Shown: positions 21,225 to 39,422 of the stretch, piece by piece
How the letters are laid out: every line of letters starts with the position of its first letter
How positions within the stretch are numbered: the first letter of the stretch is position 1
Source: a virus
IMG/VR virus record: IMGVR_UViG_3300025276_000022
Length of the DNA: 64,000 bases
Reading direction: 5' to 3' (one strand)
Notes under the pieces: model-generated
What the model was told of the DNA's origin: nothing
The model's database searches: none
What the model saw: only the letters and a program-made list of their open reading frames with translations
Made by a program: the position numbers and the translations under genes

Positions 21225-21539
21225 ATGTCTTATTATGGAATGGAAATTATTAGTCCAGACAGTGACGGCAATGGTAATTCGATTGCGTCATCGATAGTCT
21301 TCTCGGATTCTATAAGAACCTCCAACATACAGGTTTATACAACATTAAACATAGCTAGGAATGCGAGTGAATTCATCACTTGTCTGAACGCAAATGATAC
21401 TTCAAAAATATTGATAACCTTTGAGACTGCTCGAGGGTTCTACGTTAGCAATAAGACATCTACGGGATTCACGGTAACTAATGGAAATCAGATGTTGCCC
21501 AGCACTACTGGCACAGTAATAGCATTGAGGGTTGGATAA
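21225..21539 (+). CDS. small fibre-associated protein (MSYYG type)
   Basis: AAGGAG SD; positional paralogue of 33927-34208. Confidence 0.65.
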   Translation: MSYYGMEIISPDSDGNGNSIASSIVFSDSIRTSNIQVYTTLNIARNASEFITCLNANDTSKILITFETARGFYVSNKTSTGFTVTNGNQMLPSTTGTVIALRVG

Positions 21540-24500
21540 TGTCCTACGGACTACAGATTACAGGAAACGATGCCGGAGGAAATTTCACGGTTGCGGATAC
21601 TGATTTAAGTATGGTCAACCTGATAGTTACCAACTCCGGTAGAGGTTCGTCTTTTACATTAGAGGGTGGTATCCAGCCCGGAGATTACATATTTGTAAAA
21701 AGACCTACCGCTCCAAATGAAGCCTACTTCACACCAGTAACGGTTGAGGTAGATGCAAGTTTTGGAATATCCCTTACGACTAGCGTGACCTTCGATAGAC
21801 CTATGGTGTATAGTATTGAATATGGTCTAGGTGGAGAGGTATCTTTTATTGGTTCTGCATGGAAGTGGATTACTGGTAACAGTATCTATGGTCAACGACA
21901 GTTCTACCAGTACTCTGGATTCGAAGTCGAGATGGATTATTTCGTGGTACGAAAAGCATCTACTATTGAGAGTCAGGGACTCAGTACATCTGACGGTTAT
22001 GGGTTTCAACTATTAACAGAGGCCGGTGAAATAGCATTGGACTCCAGAAATTTTACGTCGAACCAAACGTTCTACATCGAAAACTACTTGCCTCCAGCAG
22101 ATAACTTTCGTGTTCTTGACGGTGCATCCTCATCATTGGCCTATAGTTCCGGTAGTTATGTCAATCTAGAATGGTCTAGAAAACAAGCTTCCGTTGGATC
22201 TCCGAGTATGATGGATGCGAATTCGATATCCGGCATATACATTACGGACACATATGCATACACTATAGACGGAGATGCTACTGGTATAGGGTCGGGTGGT
22301 GAACCTACGCTCCAGATATACTCAAGTCATAATGCTATCTTTGCAGCTAAACTAGGAGTAGGTAGTGCACCCCCAACGGATGGAGGTGACGGTGATGATG
22401 TAGACGGGCCGCCTACTGAACCAGATGCTATCACGGGTACTCTAAACTACCAGTCAGGTAGTAGTCTAACAGAAGGCGACACAATATCATTTGACGTAAC
22501 AACTTCTGAAGTAGGTAGCTACCACACACGTGTGTTTAGGTTGTCAGGTTCGGACGGTGGTTCTGGAAAAGACTTTGTCTCTGTTACACATCCATTCACG
22601 TCTACCTCAGAAACAGTCACGTTGAATACGTATGATACGAACTCTGCATCACAAACATTCGATAAGACCTTCAGTCAAGCATACACAGGTACATACACGA
22701 GAGATCGTACCTCATCATATGCTAGAGGCGTAGACTCTTCGTATACTCGCGACTTCGTAGGTGACTTCATTGGGAACTATTCTAGGCCTCACGTTTTTAC
22801 AGGCGACTTCGTAGGTGACTACATTGGCCAGGTCGACTATACTAGAGACTTCACTAGAGGTTCTACATTCACCAGAAACTATTTGCGCACTAGTACTCGT
22901 ACGTCTTCAAGAACAGACCTTTACACCAGGCCTTCGAGTTACCTTGGGAATTATGAAAGAACTGCTACCCCAACCTCTACACGCACAATCACTACAGGTG
23001 GTAGCTTTTCTAGAGACTTCACTAGAGTTTCCACGTATAGTAGAACCTCTACGACAAGTATGGTTTTGGGTGTCGAGAATGGCCAAGTAATCACTATACC
23101 AACCCCGTTTGTTTCATATTACACTAGGACACGAAACTCTTCCTTCGCAGGAAACTACACTAGAAGTAGTGCCGGTTCATTATCATATCTCGGCGAGTAC
23201 GCCAGAACAAGTACCAGAACAAGGTATTCAACATACTCAGATACGTACAGTAGAGCTAGATACAGTATATACACTAGAGATAGAGTCGTTAATAGTACTC
23301 GTATTTTAGAATTTGCTGGAAATTACACTCGAGGCTTTGTAGGGGACTATGCCAGAACCATAACTTCAACGCGTACCGTAGGGATAAGTTACGAAGGTAA
23401 CTATGCTGGTGCCGGGGCAGCTTTCTATATTATGTCTAACGGAGAAGCTAGGGTATCTTCCCACTTGTACACTCGTGTCAGTACCGCAAGTTATCTAGGT
23501 AACTATACACGTGACTATGTATCGGGTGCGGTTAGGACAGAGAACTATACTAGAACCTCTACACGCACTTTATCCTATAGCCGAACGAGAACAACGGACT
23601 ATGTCGGTAACTATGCTAACACCTACGCTCGTACCCGAACCGCAAGTTATACAGGTAACTATACTCGTACTGGATATTATGCTAATGCATACACTCGTAG
23701 TTACACTGCAAATACTCCATATGCCCGAGCCTTTACTAGAACTACGTCGGGATCCTTTAGTGGAACCTCTTACAATAGATCCTTCTACTATGCAAGAACC
23801 TTTGTAGGTAACTACTCACGTGCTTTAGCGTATACTAGAACCACGAGTGCTTTTACTTATTCCGGTTCACCAAACCAACATTATTGGTTAGAATCACCAG
23901 ACTCAGAACCGGGCGGAGGAGGTGAATCTTATGGACTTATACTTACTGAGGTTGATGTATTTACTGGCGGCGCATTAGTCGCTTCAACGGTGTCTACCCA
24001 GTATACCAATGTTAGTTACATACAAAATATAAACGGAACTTACTGGCACAAAGGGCCATTGCAGAATACTATTGGATCTAACAAATACTATTCTCTCGCA
24101 TTAAGTTCTTCTGCAATTGCCCCATCAAATACAACAACGAGCTATACCAGAACCGCAGTCTATACACGAAATCGGGCAGTTGGGTACGCTAGGATAGTTG
24201 GTTACTCGTTAGTTCGTACCGTAAGTTACACAGGTAACTATACACGTAACTACGTATCGGGTACAGTTAGGACAGAGAGCTATAGTAGAAACTTTACTAG
24301 AACCCTCGACTATACTAGAGCTAGTGCTGCAAGTTACACGGGTAACTATACACGTAACTACGCTGGTAATTATGTAGGCAACTTCGCTGGTAACTATACT
24401 AGAGACGGATTTTATACTGGGGATTATACTCGTTCGTATACAGATACTACCACAACCTTTACTGGAAATTACACTCGAAACCGAGCAGCAAGTTACACAG

Positions 24501-25759
24501 GTAACTATACTCGTACTTTTGTTGGTGTTTATGTAGGAAACTTCGTTGGTAACTTTACTAGACCTAGCACTTACTCTAGAACTAGAATTTCTACCTATAC
24601 AAGAGAATCGACCAGAGTCAGTACGTATTCCTCAAGTTACATAGGTAACTATACTCGTCTATTCCCAGGCAATTATGTTGGAGACTATGCTCGTGGATTA
24701 GGTAGCGAATATATTGGAAACTATACAAGAACTCGTATAGCAGGCACTTCTTATACCGGAGACTTTTCGGGTACACGTAATTTAGACTATACTGTTACCT
24801 CTACTAGAATTGCGTATCATACGTTCACTAGTGATTATACAAGAACTATAACCCGAGCCAGTGCATACAGTGGAACAAGAGACGCAGAGGCCTCTTATAT
24901 TGGCAACTATGTCGGAAACTATACCAGAGACAGAGCAAGTACTTTATCTTACAGTAGACCTCTCACCTTTGCAGGCGACTTCGTAGGCGACTATAGTCGT
25001 ACAAGCACTAATAATGCTCTTATTAGAACGTCAACGTACTCACGGGATGTTACATTCACTCGAACTCGTATCGAAGACTTCACAAGGCCTATTATATCAA
25101 CTCGAACCTCTACCGGAACACGCACCAGTTCGTACACAAGAACTGATGGTTCTGAGTATACAAGAGACTTCACTGCTAACTATGTAGGAGATTACATAGG
25201 TAACTACACAAGTTCGTCGACTCGTACACCATCCAATACATCGGAGACAGGTTGGCAGGGAGAGAGGTTTGTTATTGAATTGCGAAGAGGTTCTGATACA
25301 GCATCTATAGCTGCCGCCAGAGGAAGTCTTGCAGTACTAGACTCAAAAGAATTCACTCTTTATGATGATGATCATGGGTTGTTCGTATCTACATCTCCAC
25401 AGGTAATTCATCATACGTCAACAACACATGACGTTACCTTTGATTTCTATACAGAAGGAACTTCATTAGTACCGGCAAGAATCTACCGAGGAAGTTCTAT
25501 AATAGTATCGGACTTCAACCTGTCATCTAATCAGAGAACGACGAAGACTGTGAATGAAGTTCCTCCGGCTGGTTCAAGTTATACCTACAGTCTAAGAGTA
25601 TGGAATGGTAATGCGTGGATAGTGTCGTCATACTACGTAGTGAGTAGAATATCCAATACGGACTATGTACCGCCAACTACGCCAACATATACACCATCAT
25701 ACACTTCTGCTCCAGTATATTACACAAACACTGGCGGCCCTAATAACAACATAAATTAA
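21539..25759 (+). CDS. fibre tip protein: YG(L/F)Q N-domain, split Calx-beta/Ig-like domain, mirror-complementary tetrapeptide hairpin with apical domain
   Basis: MSYGLQI...DGYGFQL..EAGEIALDSR N-domain; EGD...DF...F and E.F.IEL...YDDD halves flank ~860 aa of YxRx/FxGx repeats. Confidence 0.75.
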   Translation: MSYGLQITGNDAGGNFTVADTDLSMVNLIVTNSGRGSSFTLEGGIQPGDYIFVKRPTAPNEAYFTPVTVEVDASFGISLTTSVTFDRPMVYSIEYGLGGEVSFIGSAWKWITGNSIYGQRQFYQYSGFEVEMDYFVVRKASTIESQGLSTSDGYGFQLLTEAGEIALDSRNFTSNQTFYIENYLPPADNFRVLDGASSSLAYSSGSYVNLEWSRKQASVGSPSMMDANSISGIYITDTYAYTIDGDATGIGSGGEPTLQIYSSHNAIFAAKLGVGSAPPTDGGDGDDVDGPPTEPDAITGTLNYQSGSSLTEGDTISFDVTTSEVGSYHTRVFRLSGSDGGSGKDFVSVTHPFTSTSETVTLNTYDTNSASQTFDKTFSQAYTGTYTRDRTSSYARGVDSSYTRDFVGDFIGNYSRPHVFTGDFVGDYIGQVDYTRDFTRGSTFTRNYLRTSTRTSSRTDLYTRPSSYLGNYERTATPTSTRTITTGGSFSRDFTRVSTYSRTSTTSMVLGVENGQVITIPTPFVSYYTRTRNSSFAGNYTRSSAGSLSYLGEYARTSTRTRYSTYSDTYSRARYSIYTRDRVVNSTRILEFAGNYTRGFVGDYARTITSTRTVGISYEGNYAGAGAAFYIMSNGEARVSSHLYTRVSTASYLGNYTRDYVSGAVRTENYTRTSTRTLSYSRTRTTDYVGNYANTYARTRTASYTGNYTRTGYYANAYTRSYTANTPYARAFTRTTSGSFSGTSYNRSFYYARTFVGNYSRALAYTRTTSAFTYSGSPNQHYWLESPDSEPGGGGESYGLILTEVDVFTGGALVASTVSTQYTNVSYIQNINGTYWHKGPLQNTIGSNKYYSLALSSSAIAPSNTTTSYTRTAVYTRNRAVGYARIVGYSLVRTVSYTGNYTRNYVSGTVRTESYSRNFTRTLDYTRASAASYTGNYTRNYAGNYVGNFAGNYTRDGFYTGDYTRSYTDTTTTFTGNYTRNRAASYTGNYTRTFVGVYVGNFVGNFTRPSTYSRTRISTYTRESTRVSTYSSSYIGNYTRLFPGNYVGDYARGLGSEYIGNYTRTRIAGTSYTGDFSGTRNLDYTVTSTRIAYHTFTSDYTRTITRASAYSGTRDAEASYIGNYVGNYTRDRASTLSYSRPLTFAGDFVGDYSRTSTNNALIRTSTYSRDVTFTRTRIEDFTRPIISTRTSTGTRTSSYTRTDGSEYTRDFTANYVGDYIGNYTSSSTRTPSNTSETGWQGERFVIELRRGSDTASIAAARGSLAVLDSKEFTLYDDDHGLFVSTSPQVIHHTSTTHDVTFDFYTEGTSLVPARIYRGSSIIVSDFNLSSNQRTTKTVNEVPPAGSSYTYSLRVWNGNAWIVSSYYVVSRISNTDYVPPTTPTYTPSYTSAPVYYTNTGGPNNNIN

Positions 25760-35606: not shown

Positions 35607-38600
35607 ATGTCAGCATCTAGTATACCTCTAAAAATTAAGAATAGCGATGGTGACCTACAGGAACTTACCCCAGCAGAAGAGATGTATCTCGCTGTAAAGG
35701 TAGGTGAAGCACTTGCAGAGGCCTCTGCTGGTGATATAGGCGATATCAGTCTCACCAATGGTGATAACATAGGTTCATTCGTAGATTCATTCTATAATGA
35801 AGCATCGGGCACACACCCTATGTCTAACATCACTGGTACTACAGTAACCACTACCTTGAAACAGGTTGGTGGCTCTGCGAGTGAATCTGGTAGCAATTTT
35901 GCCCGTCCTGTCGGTTATTATGCAGATAATGCAAATCCTGGCTTCTACGAAATGGTAGATGCAGATTTGGATAATCTAACAAATCGCGCACTTGTGAATC
36001 TTGAAACCTTAGAACTTCAAGGTGCATTCACACTTTCGTCCACATCGCCTGGCGGTGATTGGGCAAAACATATTGACACAGTATTCTCAGATACTCGTGG
36101 AGACGGAACTTCGATAGACTTCCATATTTGGAAGAAAACCGCACTTGCATCACCCCCAGCTGGTATTGTAACCACTCGGCCAGTTGCAACCGATTATGAT
36201 GGATCCTCAGCATTTAGCGGTCTAAAAGAAATGTCTGACGCAGAGATCAAGTACACTCTCGGTCAACGTGCTAAGTCACTTAGGTCGACAGCAGGAGCCA
36301 TTGGTTCTTATCAACTTCGTTCATCTGTACAAGGCGCTCCAACCTCAGCCGGAACTTGGGTTCCTCGTGGTACTGCCGCGAATACTCAACGTACTATTGT
36401 TGATGGAACTTATTCTCGCACTCGTGCTTCTGCATATGCTCGTACAAGAGTTTCTGCATACAGTCGTAATCGTGTATCAACTTATACTCGCAACAGCGTA
36501 GATACATTTGCACGTACGTTTGCTGGTGAATATACTGGTACATATTCTCGTGAATTTGCCGGTGAATATACACGTGGCTATGCAGGGGATTACACTAGAA
36601 CTCGTCCCTCAACATATACCCGAAATCGATTAACTGCGTTCACTGGTTACTTTGCTGGTACTTACAACCGTGCAAGAGTTTCAGTATACACACGCAATCG
36701 TGTAACACCATTTACCGGAACCTTCTCACGTACTCGTGCATCAGCATACACACGTGGTCGTGTTTCAACTTACGCAGGGACTTACGCAAGAACTCGTACT
36801 TCTGTTTACACAGCGGATTATACTCGTGCCCGTGTATCAACGTACACCGGAACTTACGCAGGAGTTTATTCTCGTAACCGTGTATCTGCATATGCTGGAA
36901 CTTACTCACGTACACGTTCTTCTGCTTATAGTCAACCATATACTCGTACACGTACTTCTGCATACTCTGCGGATTATACTCGTACACGTATAACTAACTA
37001 CACACGTGATCGTGTAACCAACTTTGCTGGCGTTTTCTCTCGTGCTCGTGTTTCTACATATACTCGTAATCGCGTTACAAACTTTGCTGGAAACTTCGTT
37101 GGTAACTATGCTCGTGGATTCGTAGGTAACTATTCTCGTGGATTCGTAGGTAACTACGCTCGTGGATATGCTGGCGACTTCGTCGGTAACTACGCTCGTG
37201 TTTCTACTCGTACATCTACTCGTACTCGTTACTCTGCATACGCTCGTACATCTACTCGTACTCGTTACTCTGCATATGCTCGTGACCGTGTCACTAACTT
37301 TGCTGGTGACTTCGTAGGTAACTACGCAACAACCTTTACTGGCAACTTTGCGGGCAACTATTCAAGAGACCGTGTAACAACCTTTACTGGTGACTTCGTA
37401 GGTAACTACGCAACAACCTTTACTGGCAACTTTGCGGGCAACTATTCAAGAGACCGTGTCACTAACTTTGCTGGCGATTTCGTAGGTAACTATGCAACAA
37501 CCTTTACTGGCAACTTCGCAGGTGATTACGCAAGAACTTCTACTAGAACTTCTACGCGTACACTAGACTATACTCGTTATTTGTACTATACTGGCAACTT
37601 TGCGGGCAACTATTCAAGAGACCGTGCATTCTCATATGTTGGAGATTACTCTAGAGCTCGTGCACAAGGAACTTCGTACACTGGTAACTATGGTCGTACT
37701 AGAACAGGTAGCTACACTGGTAACTATGCACGTACTCGTACTGCTTCTTACCTCGGTAACTATACTGGTAACTTCGCTGGTAACTATATCGGTAACTATA
37801 CACGAAACCTGATCTCAACTCGGACAAGTATTACCCTCGGAGGAACATCATATTATGCTCGATTCGTGTATAATCCATACATGGGAGAACTGGTTCCGGT
37901 TTTCTATACCCGTACTGCAGCGACCGCATATTACGCTGGTAACTTTGTTACTACCATGGCGTATACGACAGACTCCACACGTGCCTACCCGATGGCCTTT
38001 ACTAGGAATCGTGCCGCGAGCTATGTAGGCGACTATGCTCGTGTCCGTGCATTCTCTTATGTTGGAGACTACTCAAGAGCTCGTGCCCACACTCTTTACT
38101 ACACTGGTAACTATGGTCGTACTAGAACAGGTAGCTACACTGGTAACTATGCACGTACAAGTACTCGATCTAGCAATGTTCTCGCATATTACGGTAGAAC
38201 TGGATATTATGCTGGTGACTTTGTTGGTAACTATGGTCGTACTCGCGTAACTAACTATGTTGGTGATTTCACTAGAACTCGTGTAACTAACTATGCTGGA
38301 AATTTCGTTGGTAACTATGGTCGTACTCGTGTAACTAACTATGTTGGCGACTTTGCTAGAACTCGCGTAACTAACTATGCTGGTAACTTTGTCGGTAACT
38401 ATGGTCGTACTCGTGTAACTAACTATGTTGGTGACTTTAGTCGCAACCGTGTAACTAACTTCGCTGGTAACTTCGTCGGTAACTATGCTCGTGCATATGC
38501 TGGTGATTATGTTGGTAACTATGCTCGCGCATATGCTGGCGACTTCGCTGGTAACTATACTGGTGATTACGCTCGTACTTCTACAAGAACTCGTTACTCT

Positions 38601-39422
38601 GCGTATATCCGTACTCGTACGTCGGCATATGTCCGTAACCGTTCTTCTGCGTACGCAAGAGATCGTATAACTAACTTCGCTGGTGACTTTACTGGTAACT
38701 ATGCAAGAACCTTCACTGGTAACTATGCACGTAACTATGCAGGCAACTTCATTGGTGATTTTGTTGGTGATTTCGCTGGTAACTATGTTGGTAACTACAC
38801 TAGACAGTTCGGTGGTAACTATGTCGGTAACTATGCACGTAACTACGTAGGCGAATATGCCGGTACATATAGCCGTGGATTCGCTGGTGAGTACACAGGA
38901 ACTTACACTGGTGTCTACTCGAACACGTTCGGTGGTAACTATGTTGGTAACTATGCACGTAACTTCGCAGGCGAATACACTGGAACTTACTCGAATACTT
39001 TCACTGGTAACTACTCACGTGGTTTCTCTGGTCAGTACACTCGCGACTTCGCTGGTGACTTCGTAGGTAACTATGCAAGAACATTTGCTGGTGAGTACAC
39101 TGGAACGTATGCAAGTGACTTTGTAGGTGACTTCGTAGGTAACTATTCACGTGACTTCGTAGGTAACTACGGTCGAGTTCGTGTATCGGCTTACTCAAGA
39201 CTACGTAACTCAACATACACTGGAATTTACTCTCGTGACCGTGTATCAACCTATGTTGGTGACTTCACAGGTAATTACTCACGTGGATTCACAGGTGATT
39301 ACGCTCGTGACTTCGTAGGTAACTATGCTAGAGCTTTCGTAGGTAACTACACTGGCGCAACAATCAGTGATACATTGGTTAACACACCAGAAAATTATAC
39401 CTTATACGTACGGGTTGCTTAA
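35607..39422 (+). CDS. putative virion protein with ~980-aa mirror-complementary tetrapeptide repeat (predicted giant beta-hairpin)
   Basis: globular N-domain aa 1-268, tetrad repeats aa 269-1251 with central NPYMG turn, short C-terminal strand YTLYVRVA; own late promoter. Confidence 0.8.
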   Translation: MSASSIPLKIKNSDGDLQELTPAEEMYLAVKVGEALAEASAGDIGDISLTNGDNIGSFVDSFYNEASGTHPMSNITGTTVTTTLKQVGGSASESGSNFARPVGYYADNANPGFYEMVDADLDNLTNRALVNLETLELQGAFTLSSTSPGGDWAKHIDTVFSDTRGDGTSIDFHIWKKTALASPPAGIVTTRPVATDYDGSSAFSGLKEMSDAEIKYTLGQRAKSLRSTAGAIGSYQLRSSVQGAPTSAGTWVPRGTAANTQRTIVDGTYSRTRASAYARTRVSAYSRNRVSTYTRNSVDTFARTFAGEYTGTYSREFAGEYTRGYAGDYTRTRPSTYTRNRLTAFTGYFAGTYNRARVSVYTRNRVTPFTGTFSRTRASAYTRGRVSTYAGTYARTRTSVYTADYTRARVSTYTGTYAGVYSRNRVSAYAGTYSRTRSSAYSQPYTRTRTSAYSADYTRTRITNYTRDRVTNFAGVFSRARVSTYTRNRVTNFAGNFVGNYARGFVGNYSRGFVGNYARGYAGDFVGNYARVSTRTSTRTRYSAYARTSTRTRYSAYARDRVTNFAGDFVGNYATTFTGNFAGNYSRDRVTTFTGDFVGNYATTFTGNFAGNYSRDRVTNFAGDFVGNYATTFTGNFAGDYARTSTRTSTRTLDYTRYLYYTGNFAGNYSRDRAFSYVGDYSRARAQGTSYTGNYGRTRTGSYTGNYARTRTASYLGNYTGNFAGNYIGNYTRNLISTRTSITLGGTSYYARFVYNPYMGELVPVFYTRTAATAYYAGNFVTTMAYTTDSTRAYPMAFTRNRAASYVGDYARVRAFSYVGDYSRARAHTLYYTGNYGRTRTGSYTGNYARTSTRSSNVLAYYGRTGYYAGDFVGNYGRTRVTNYVGDFTRTRVTNYAGNFVGNYGRTRVTNYVGDFARTRVTNYAGNFVGNYGRTRVTNYVGDFSRNRVTNFAGNFVGNYARAYAGDYVGNYARAYAGDFAGNYTGDYARTSTRTRYSAYIRTRTSAYVRNRSSAYARDRITNFAGDFTGNYARTFTGNYARNYAGNFIGDFVGDFAGNYVGNYTRQFGGNYVGNYARNYVGEYAGTYSRGFAGEYTGTYTGVYSNTFGGNYVGNYARNFAGEYTGTYSNTFTGNYSRGFSGQYTRDFAGDFVGNYARTFAGEYTGTYASDFVGDFVGNYSRDFVGNYGRVRVSAYSRLRNSTYTGIYSRDRVSTYVGDFTGNYSRGFTGDYARDFVGNYARAFVGNYTGATISDTLVNTPENYTLYVRVA

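Follow-up and report, generated by a model that had tools for sequence, protein, structure and literature searches.

We have analysed two fibre-type genes, here called gene A and gene B, in a 64,000-nucleotide stretch of viral DNA (the window; IMG/VR record IMGVR_UViG_3300025276_000022). Both genes probably encode fold-back fibres whose stalks carry old, self-complementary paralogous modules, and in which recent conversion between arms, mirrored tandem insertions and deletions (indels) and exchange of the distal hairpin explain the repeats and the differences in length. Duplication of whole hairpins, which a preliminary description of this DNA had proposed as the way the stalks grow, is not needed for this explanation and was not seen. 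In both proteins a tetrad-repeat region would fold back on itself, so that the N arm lies antiparallel to the C arm beyond a common base, and a simple symmetric rule would set which tetrad types may face each other across the stalk. Relatives are designated L### or P### and are alleles or family members from metagenome assemblies; A and B denote the alleles of the window. The close orthologues of gene A recovered were L005 (1207 amino acids (aa), same apex domain), L052 (1163 aa), two partial genes, L002 (same contig as L061, 1466 aa) and L003 (same contig as L066, 1554 aa).

The stalk of gene A has a four-residue period with an aromatic residue at every fourth position, and its composition is rich in Gly, Thr, Asn and Arg. 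Residue i lies opposite residue 1520-i, which sets aa 269-734 against aa 1251-786 with no gap; aa 269-652 read forward and aa 1251-868 read backward comprise 96 tetrads each, and the register holds to about aa 734/786. At this register every tetrad that starts with R or S stands opposite an aromatic-x-Gly-x tetrad (43/43). At 24 other registers at most 62% of R/S tetrads are so paired, and none of 100,000 shuffles reached 100%. No DNA-level inverted repeat that might couple the arms was found, so the coupling acts through the protein. The basal stalk is strongly asymmetric (36411-37270 versus 38460-39359), with an N arm rich in R/S-initiated units and a C arm rich in Gly units.

The preliminary description had reported a 113-base-pair (bp) direct repeat across the apex of gene A, and this was confirmed. 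Its N-arm copy (U1) and C-arm copy (U2) agree at 101 of 113 columns, columns 55-113 (59 nucleotides, nt) being identical throughout, and eight of the 12 mismatches fall in four central codons (QGTS versus HTLY). As repeat family D10 the similarity extends to 145 nt at 84% (37598-37742 versus 38021-38165). The further claim, that the unit is palindromic under the pairing code and that its copies pair antiparallel, also held: the core, aa 673-706, sits exactly opposite its own copy, aa 814-847, at i+j=1520, and the unit is thus self-complementary and self-paired. In the basal two thirds of gene A the direct identity of facing segments is 0.447 versus a background of 0.442; it increases toward the apex, and self-paired repeats occur in the distal third only. 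One six-residue unit per arm (37671-37682 versus 38094-38105) shifts the tetrad frame by two residues, and the two units face each other. This frame-breaking landmark is kept in all alleles, with arm-specific sequences. The first codon of the window's C-arm unit is intermediate between both types, which may reflect a second, very short conversion or an independent change.

Both copies of the repeat unit are present in all recovered close orthologues, so the U1/U2 pair is old and predates the separation from L003. At the four central codons every allele shows the same position-specific contrast between the arms. The window's U2 groups with the U2 of L052, L005 and L002 in its 5' half (41/42), its centre (9/12) and its downstream flank (16-18/24). 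Its 3' half, however, is identical to the window's own U1 at 59/60 positions, states private to the window included, and to the U2 of those three alleles at only 47-48/60, the three being 57-59/60 identical to one another. Fixed diagnostic sites divide 8:0 within the tract but 3:18 beyond its borders (Fisher p=3.8e-5). Derived states found only in the window's two copies extend the tract to ~38151, and U2-type sites at 38099 and 38159 bound it. Judged from these alignments, the 59-bp identity is a gene-conversion tract of ~55-60 nt, copied from N arm to C arm only in the lineage of the window, and not a fresh duplication.

Homogenisation between arms recurs in relatives. In L005 the two copies agree at 40/42 positions of their 5' halves and have a private Asp codon in common. 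L063 has, on both arms, a variant of a facing unit that is private to it; the two are 44/48 nt identical, the rare codon AGG included, and match the positional homologue in L062 at 27-29/48. Concerted evolution by intragenic gene conversion was thus found in the window, in L005 and in L063. Of 17 distinct cross-arm repeats of high identity in 28 genes, 10 are placed no more than 16 aa from their own dyad, against an estimated one in ten for random placement along arms of 400-690 aa. In alleles other than the window's, U1/U2 identity is 0.68-0.82, just the upper edge of the background set by windows of the same tetrad pattern in the gene, which average 60-65% nucleotide identity. As the identity lies so near background, an ancient duplication behind U1 and U2 is, on the sequences compared, no more than a possibility.

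Differences in the length of gene A are matched between the arms. Two tandem arrays lie exactly opposite each other on the stalk (Table 1), and their in-frame, head-to-tail units vary in copy number between close alleles: one copy in L005 and L052, two in L006 and L009, and ~2.6 in L002. The C-arm array has the same copy number as the N-arm array in every complete allele. L002 lacks 12 aa of the middle unit on both arms, at facing positions, and carries the same palindromic 7-tetrad unit twice per arm. A fold scored on tetrad classes gave gap-free or gap-matched hairpins in ~25 distinct complete gene A orthologues, with arms of 222-986 aa (for example 402/402, 434/434, 584/584 and 986/985). 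This scoring itself favours equal arms; the independent evidence consists of the fixed end points and the allele alignments. The hairpin runs from ~aa 265 to 19-20 aa before the C-terminus in the ~25 orthologues and in 69 more distant members. An anchor-based correlation of arm lengths (alignment A3) was uninformative, since close members are invariant and the anchors of distant members are unreliable.

Global alignments between alleles yielded N-arm and C-arm indel lists that mirror each other. In aa, and in order along each arm, the lists are N 56, -2 and C -2, 56 for A versus L052; N 56, -4, -20 and C -18, -6, 56 for A versus L005; N -72, -30, 2, ... and C ..., 2, -30, -72 for L005 versus L062; and N 12, 16, 30, 4, ... 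and C ..., 4, 30, 16, 12 for L054 versus L061. The matched indels lie ~1-2.5 kilobases (kb) apart in the same gene. They often consist of arm-specific units that are no copies of one another; such pairs are ~2 kb apart and enclose the whole distal hairpin. L083 and L086, which are 97-98% identical, differ by a single 60-aa block on each arm (N 60, C 60), made of five 12-aa units each, and the N-arm unit differs in sequence from the C-arm unit. Because these units are arm-specific, duplication across the apex cannot yield the pair. Divergence is uniform inside and outside the indel pair (2.4%, 2.9% and 2.3%), which excludes a cassette swap there and requires a separate event on each arm. The preliminary description had held that length could evolve without two simultaneous compensating events; the relatives instead show paired events, in L083/L086 with non-homologous units on the two arms. 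It had also suggested comparing length variants among relatives, and here the outcome was divided. Variants did come in matched pairs, and no unmatched single-arm length variant was observed among relatives, but no breakpoints spanned the apex as one hairpin: no alleles differing by one contiguous, tip-spanning sub-hairpin were found among the ~25 gene A orthologues or five gene B relatives. The cross-arm copies have positional orthologues, and growth of whole hairpins in the manner of a palindrome was not found.

Exchange of the distal hairpin would be a further source of variation. Between A and L005, divergence is 2.5-4.7% in the basal arms and 20-23% distal to the arrays on both arms; for A versus L005 and A versus L052 taken together it rises from 2.5-7% basal to 18-25% distal, again on both arms. 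This jump fits replacement of the distal hairpin by recombination, with putative breakpoints in the arrays. Apex types and distal-stem types form a mosaic among A, L005, L006 and L002, and L006 combines the small apex type of the window with L002-like distal stems. Such combinations indicate frequent recombination within gene A.

Gene B has its own cross-apex repeats. Block X (23481-23556) recurs as X' (24216-24291) with 65/76 columns identical, in agreement with the preliminary description, and the starts of the X and Y motifs have equal sums (663+965 = 720+908 = 1628), so that X lies opposite Y' and Y opposite X', as had been claimed. The constant-sum rule is also seen in relatives, the three inner pairs of L017 all summing to 1750. 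In blastn comparisons of gene B with L017, the two bases and the core Y-apex-X' are collinear, whereas the outer modules are not. The outer N-arm module of gene B matches aa 1059-1133 of L017 (82.7% over 225 nt; also 87% over 120 nt), and its outer C-arm module matches aa 614-685 (74% over 217 nt). These matches lie on opposite arms; orthologous modules therefore change arms, and the rule is symmetric. Of the symmetric code that had been proposed, the symmetry and the occurrence of modules on either arm thus stand, but growth of a hairpin by one duplication finds no support. As the blastn matches are arranged, the swap of outer modules would need at least two recombination events.

The near-identical gene B alleles L016, P0121 and P0122 keep the order insert-X-Y-apex-X'-Y'. 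The sister type, L017/P0123, is 162 aa longer, its N arm bearing four Y modules and its C arm four X modules, and more distant gene B relatives have one Y, the apex and one X. With an ancestral core of Y-apex-X, copying a whole hairpin would have left two apex domains, and no such doubling is seen. Within a genome, X and X' are 0.70-0.72 identical, no more than across genomes, while orthologues are 0.87-0.88 identical; the repeat is therefore old, with no recent conversion. No other viral-contig relatives with the X/Y modules of gene B were found, and the arm flip is polarised by only three more distant proteins. Sequence movement between arms is thus seen as conversion tracts in gene A and as arm-swapped modules in gene B; the repeats do not read as traces of one whole-hairpin duplication lengthening the stalk. 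A non-tetrad insert of ~21 aa accompanies the X module (gene B aa 639-664, 23453-23530); it is on the N arm in gene B and occurs twice on the C arm in L017, where the X+Y position sum, constant otherwise, is raised by 18, as expected for an unpaired lateral bulge.

We propose that the direct repeats across the apex are paralogues of long standing: self-complementary modules that face one another over the stalk. More recently, in the phage of the window, gene conversion copied ~55-60 nt from the N arm over the C arm, which gave the 59-bp identity; such conversion would be tolerated because a self-complementary unit still pairs after replacement by its partner's sequence. The length of the stalk may change mainly in two ways. 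Short tandem units of three, five or seven tetrads would be gained or lost on each arm, with only size-matched, mirror-placed combinations surviving, or recombination, with a breakpoint in the array of each arm, would exchange the whole distal hairpin. The sequences themselves show the repeat, the register, the tract of conversion, the mirrored indels and the modules that have swapped arms. We infer the order of these events, as well as the role of selection as the filter and the three-dimensional fold of the stalk.

Several other explanations were weighed. Tandem duplication of a whole self-complementary hairpin could make the cross-apex repeats and be the main route of stalk growth. In its favour, the units are self-complementary and stand opposite their own copies, self-paired cross-arm repeats occur in several lineages, mostly near the apex, and both the rise of facing identity from background toward the apex, which fits growth at the tip, and the doubled palindromic unit of each L002 arm point the same way. 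We nonetheless consider it unlikely. The 59-bp identity is a tract of conversion within a pair that predates the L003 split, and U1/U2 identity in other alleles reaches only the upper edge of background. Wherever a length difference between close alleles was mapped, it proved to be a mirrored pair of tandem changes within the arms, in some cases with non-homologous units; the apex domain between the copies is never duplicated, and the gene B outgroups have the core Y-apex-X. One-step matched change is a better contender, although still a doubtful one as a general account: recombination between co-infecting phages would swap the whole distal hairpin as a cassette, with crossovers in both arrays. 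The steep rise in divergence beyond the 56-aa indels of A versus L005 and L052 and the mosaic of apex types and distal stems speak for it. The matched 60-aa pair of L083/L086, in a setting of uniform divergence, does not agree with a swap, and crossovers in the arrays alone would not give equal copy numbers, so that selection would still be needed.

Two remaining explanations dismiss part of the signal itself. An artefact of assembly or polishing, in which mis-mapped reads homogenised one copy and the arrays collapsed equally on both arms, is very improbable. The relatives are indeed short-read metagenome assemblies, in which tandem arrays of 36-84 nt are error-prone, but 12 copy-specific differences within 60 nt of the tract would anchor reads, the mirrored indels include sub-unit deletions (12 aa each), and equal collapse every time is implausible for equal arms in ~25 independent assemblies. 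It is scarcely credible that low complexity and codon bias on a constrained peptide alone produced the cross-apex identity, with no shared ancestry or transfer. Elsewhere in gene A, 34 of 194 pairs of identical 8-mers are also identical in DNA, and windows of the same tetrad pattern share the background identity given above. Against this, the probability of 20 identical codons, for one and the same peptide and with the codon usage of gene A, is 10^-6.35, and the rare codons AGA and AGC are present in both copies, so low complexity, which the preliminary description had named as a possible refutation, does not account for the identity. The tract is moreover sharp-bordered and bears window-specific U1 states.

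Some points weigh against the fold-back account that we prefer. No intermediate with unmatched arms was observed, and the sequence of two events followed by selection is therefore an inference. Every relative comes from a metagenome assembly, where tandem arrays can be mis-counted, and it is parsimony among four alleles that assigns the conversion its direction and lineage. The old U1/U2 and X/X' pairs could still have arisen, ultimately, by a copy across the apex. Modelling gave no confident three-dimensional stalk. With AlphaFold2 (AF2), aa 613-907 of gene A as a single sequence had a predicted local distance difference test score (pLDDT) of 32.7, and only a short hairpin at aa 741-768 was modelled. 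For the family member P0099, with an alignment of 28 sequences, a model was obtained of the base domain and apex, whereas pLDDT for the stalk was about 25. In the P0099 model the conserved C-terminal strand was placed with the N-terminal domain (pLDDT about 90), and strands were present at the base of the stalk. This predicted placement agrees with a chain that leaves the base and returns to it, a path for which the evidence from sequence is strong. The arms could also pair between subunits rather than within one chain; the evolutionary results hold in either case. A VIA search with the P0099 model gave a best Z of 7.0, within noise, and says nothing about the stalk. Fold scoring by residue, trained on gene A, captured mostly tetrad phase, performed poorly on gene B and was replaced by tetrad-class scoring, which is itself unreliable for gene B and for the irregular P0056 subfamily.

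A literature search found no description of this architecture or of mirrored indels in a beta fibre. By analogy, the nearest structural counterpart would be the fold-back needle of T4 gp37, and the nearest topological counterpart the arm of SMC/Rad50 proteins. In the needle and tip of gp37, the long tail fibre protein of T4, each chain runs out to the distal head and returns. As in gp37, N-side and C-side strands would lie side by side beneath a small tip-capping domain, and the genes belong to a T4-like tail-fibre module. To our knowledge, a four-residue repeat with a class-pairing rule and mirrored indels has not been described for gp37. The arms of the gene A family are 5-20 times longer, and neither a sequence relation nor profile similarity to gp37 or to other solved fibre tips was found. 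The gp37 needle has iron sites along its length (PMC6957217), whereas the gene A stalk contains no His-x-His metal motif and a single His in aa 269-1251. SMC and Rad50 proteins have antiparallel coiled-coil arms (PMC4255302, PMC5344682). In those proteins, as predicted for the present stalks, the N and C ends meet in one base domain, a long fold-back rod ends in a distal cap, and the lengths of the arms must match. The SMC/Rad50 arms are, however, alpha-helical with heptads and strongly conserved in length, and their function is unrelated; the stalks described here have a period of four residues and would be of beta type, heptad helical arms were not found, and arm length varies more than four-fold among orthologues.

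In nucleic-acid stems, change on one strand is matched on the other, and repeat families are homogenised by short, sharp-bordered conversion tracts. Matched changes and sharp-bordered conversion between paralogous copies are found here too, although complementarity exists only at the protein level and coupling would act through the folded protein and selection. Variation in tandem-repeat copy number is known in phage and bacterial surface fibre genes. The gain and loss of in-frame 36-84 nt units between close alleles and the mosaic distal, receptor-side part are alike, but here every change has an equal, mirrored counterpart ~1-2.5 kb away in the gene. Tentatively, these stalks may be a protein counterpart of a nucleic-acid stem, in which a small symmetric pairing alphabet, together with compensatory mirror indels, arm-to-arm conversion and module exchange, keeps a freely length-tunable rod (222 to ~990 aa) in register. 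If the fold-back reading is true, the family offers a natural record, of a kind rarely found, of how a very long protein rod with two arms changes length while in register. The record comprises dozens of independent mirror-image indels, bounded inter-arm conversion tracts and orthologous modules on opposite arms, and it supports the idea that a symmetric residue-class pairing rule constrains the repeat dynamics of a gene. The same reading would offer simple design rules for rods of chosen length. The striking 59-bp identity marks concerted evolution, not growth, and the family points to fibre length and tip identity as traits open to rapid exchange in marine T4-like phages.

The window represents the baseplate and tail-fibre module of a T4-like, cyanophage-type genome, with baseplate wedge, sheath and terminase genes present. 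Its closest record is the Kyanoviridae phage C48C1. Database searches returned 305 gene A homologues of 700-1800 aa, which have in common the N-terminal domain and the last ~20 residues. Searches of Pfam, PHROGs and PDB sequences gave no informative family; neither gene A nor gene B belongs to a Pfam family or has a relative among solved structures, and gene A had no PDB sequence match at E<=1. A PDB match of gene B to a zinc-finger protein at E 0.04 was judged spurious. Coordinates of the features are collected in Table 1.

Table 1. Features of gene A and gene B in the window, with their positions, strand and basis
Feature	Position	Strand	Remarks
Gene A	35607..39422	+	Open reading frame, 1271 aa; virion fibre-type protein with base domain (aa 1-268), tetrad-repeat stalk and conserved 20-aa C-terminal tail
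Gene A, N arm of stalk (aa 269-734)	36411..37808	+	Register test; tetrad-level fold 471/468 aa without gaps
Gene A, N-arm tandem array	37275..37526	+	3 x 84 nt, 7-tetrad unit
Gene A, U1 (N-arm copy of self-complementary unit)	37623..37735	+	Direct repeat comparison; putative conversion donor
Gene A, small apex domain (~aa 735-785)	37809..37961	+	Same type in L005, L052 and L006
Gene A, C arm of stalk (aa 786-1251)	37962..39359	+	Register test; tetrad-level fold
Gene A, U2 (C-arm copy)	38046..38158	+	Faces U1 antiparallel
Gene A, gene-conversion tract	38100..38158	+	U1 written over U2; minimum 38104-38126 by fixed diagnostic sites
Gene A, C-arm tandem array	38208..38459	+	3 x 84 nt, exactly opposite N-arm array
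Gene B	21539..25759	+	1406 aa; second fold-back fibre-type protein
Gene B, outer N-arm module (small insert and block X, aa 620-693)	23396..23617	+	Orthologue on C arm of L017
Gene B, core hairpin (block Y, apex domain, block X', aa 702-940)	23642..24358	+	Collinear in L017 and outgroups; 83% over 728 nt
Gene B, outer C-arm module (block Y', aa 934-1005)	24338..24553	+	Closest relative on N arm of L017

Some family members depart from the window's gene A in size or in repeat type. The orthologue L079 (IMGVR_UViG_3300032082_003074, 6501 onward) is an extreme case, with 2282 aa, arms of 986/985 aa and an apex of 29 aa, and the homologue in C48C1 (L001, 8001-18044) has 3347 aa. Fully extended arms in orthologues of this size would exceed 300 nm, and the stalk may thus be coiled or bundled. 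L010 (2-7978; ERZ1048068 NODE-92) encodes 2659 aa and shares the C-terminal tail, yet has an acidic, Gln-rich repeat that recurs every 12 residues; the pairing alphabet may be another one in this member. P0004, a 1323-aa fragment from a 71.7 kb ENA contig from which the N arm is missing, contains five globular domains that are related to one another (~115-190 aa each), with stretches of ~18 tetrads between them that have no R/S-initiated unit. This could be the branched product expected from a hairpin duplicated with its apex, or alternatively a stalk with lateral knobs.

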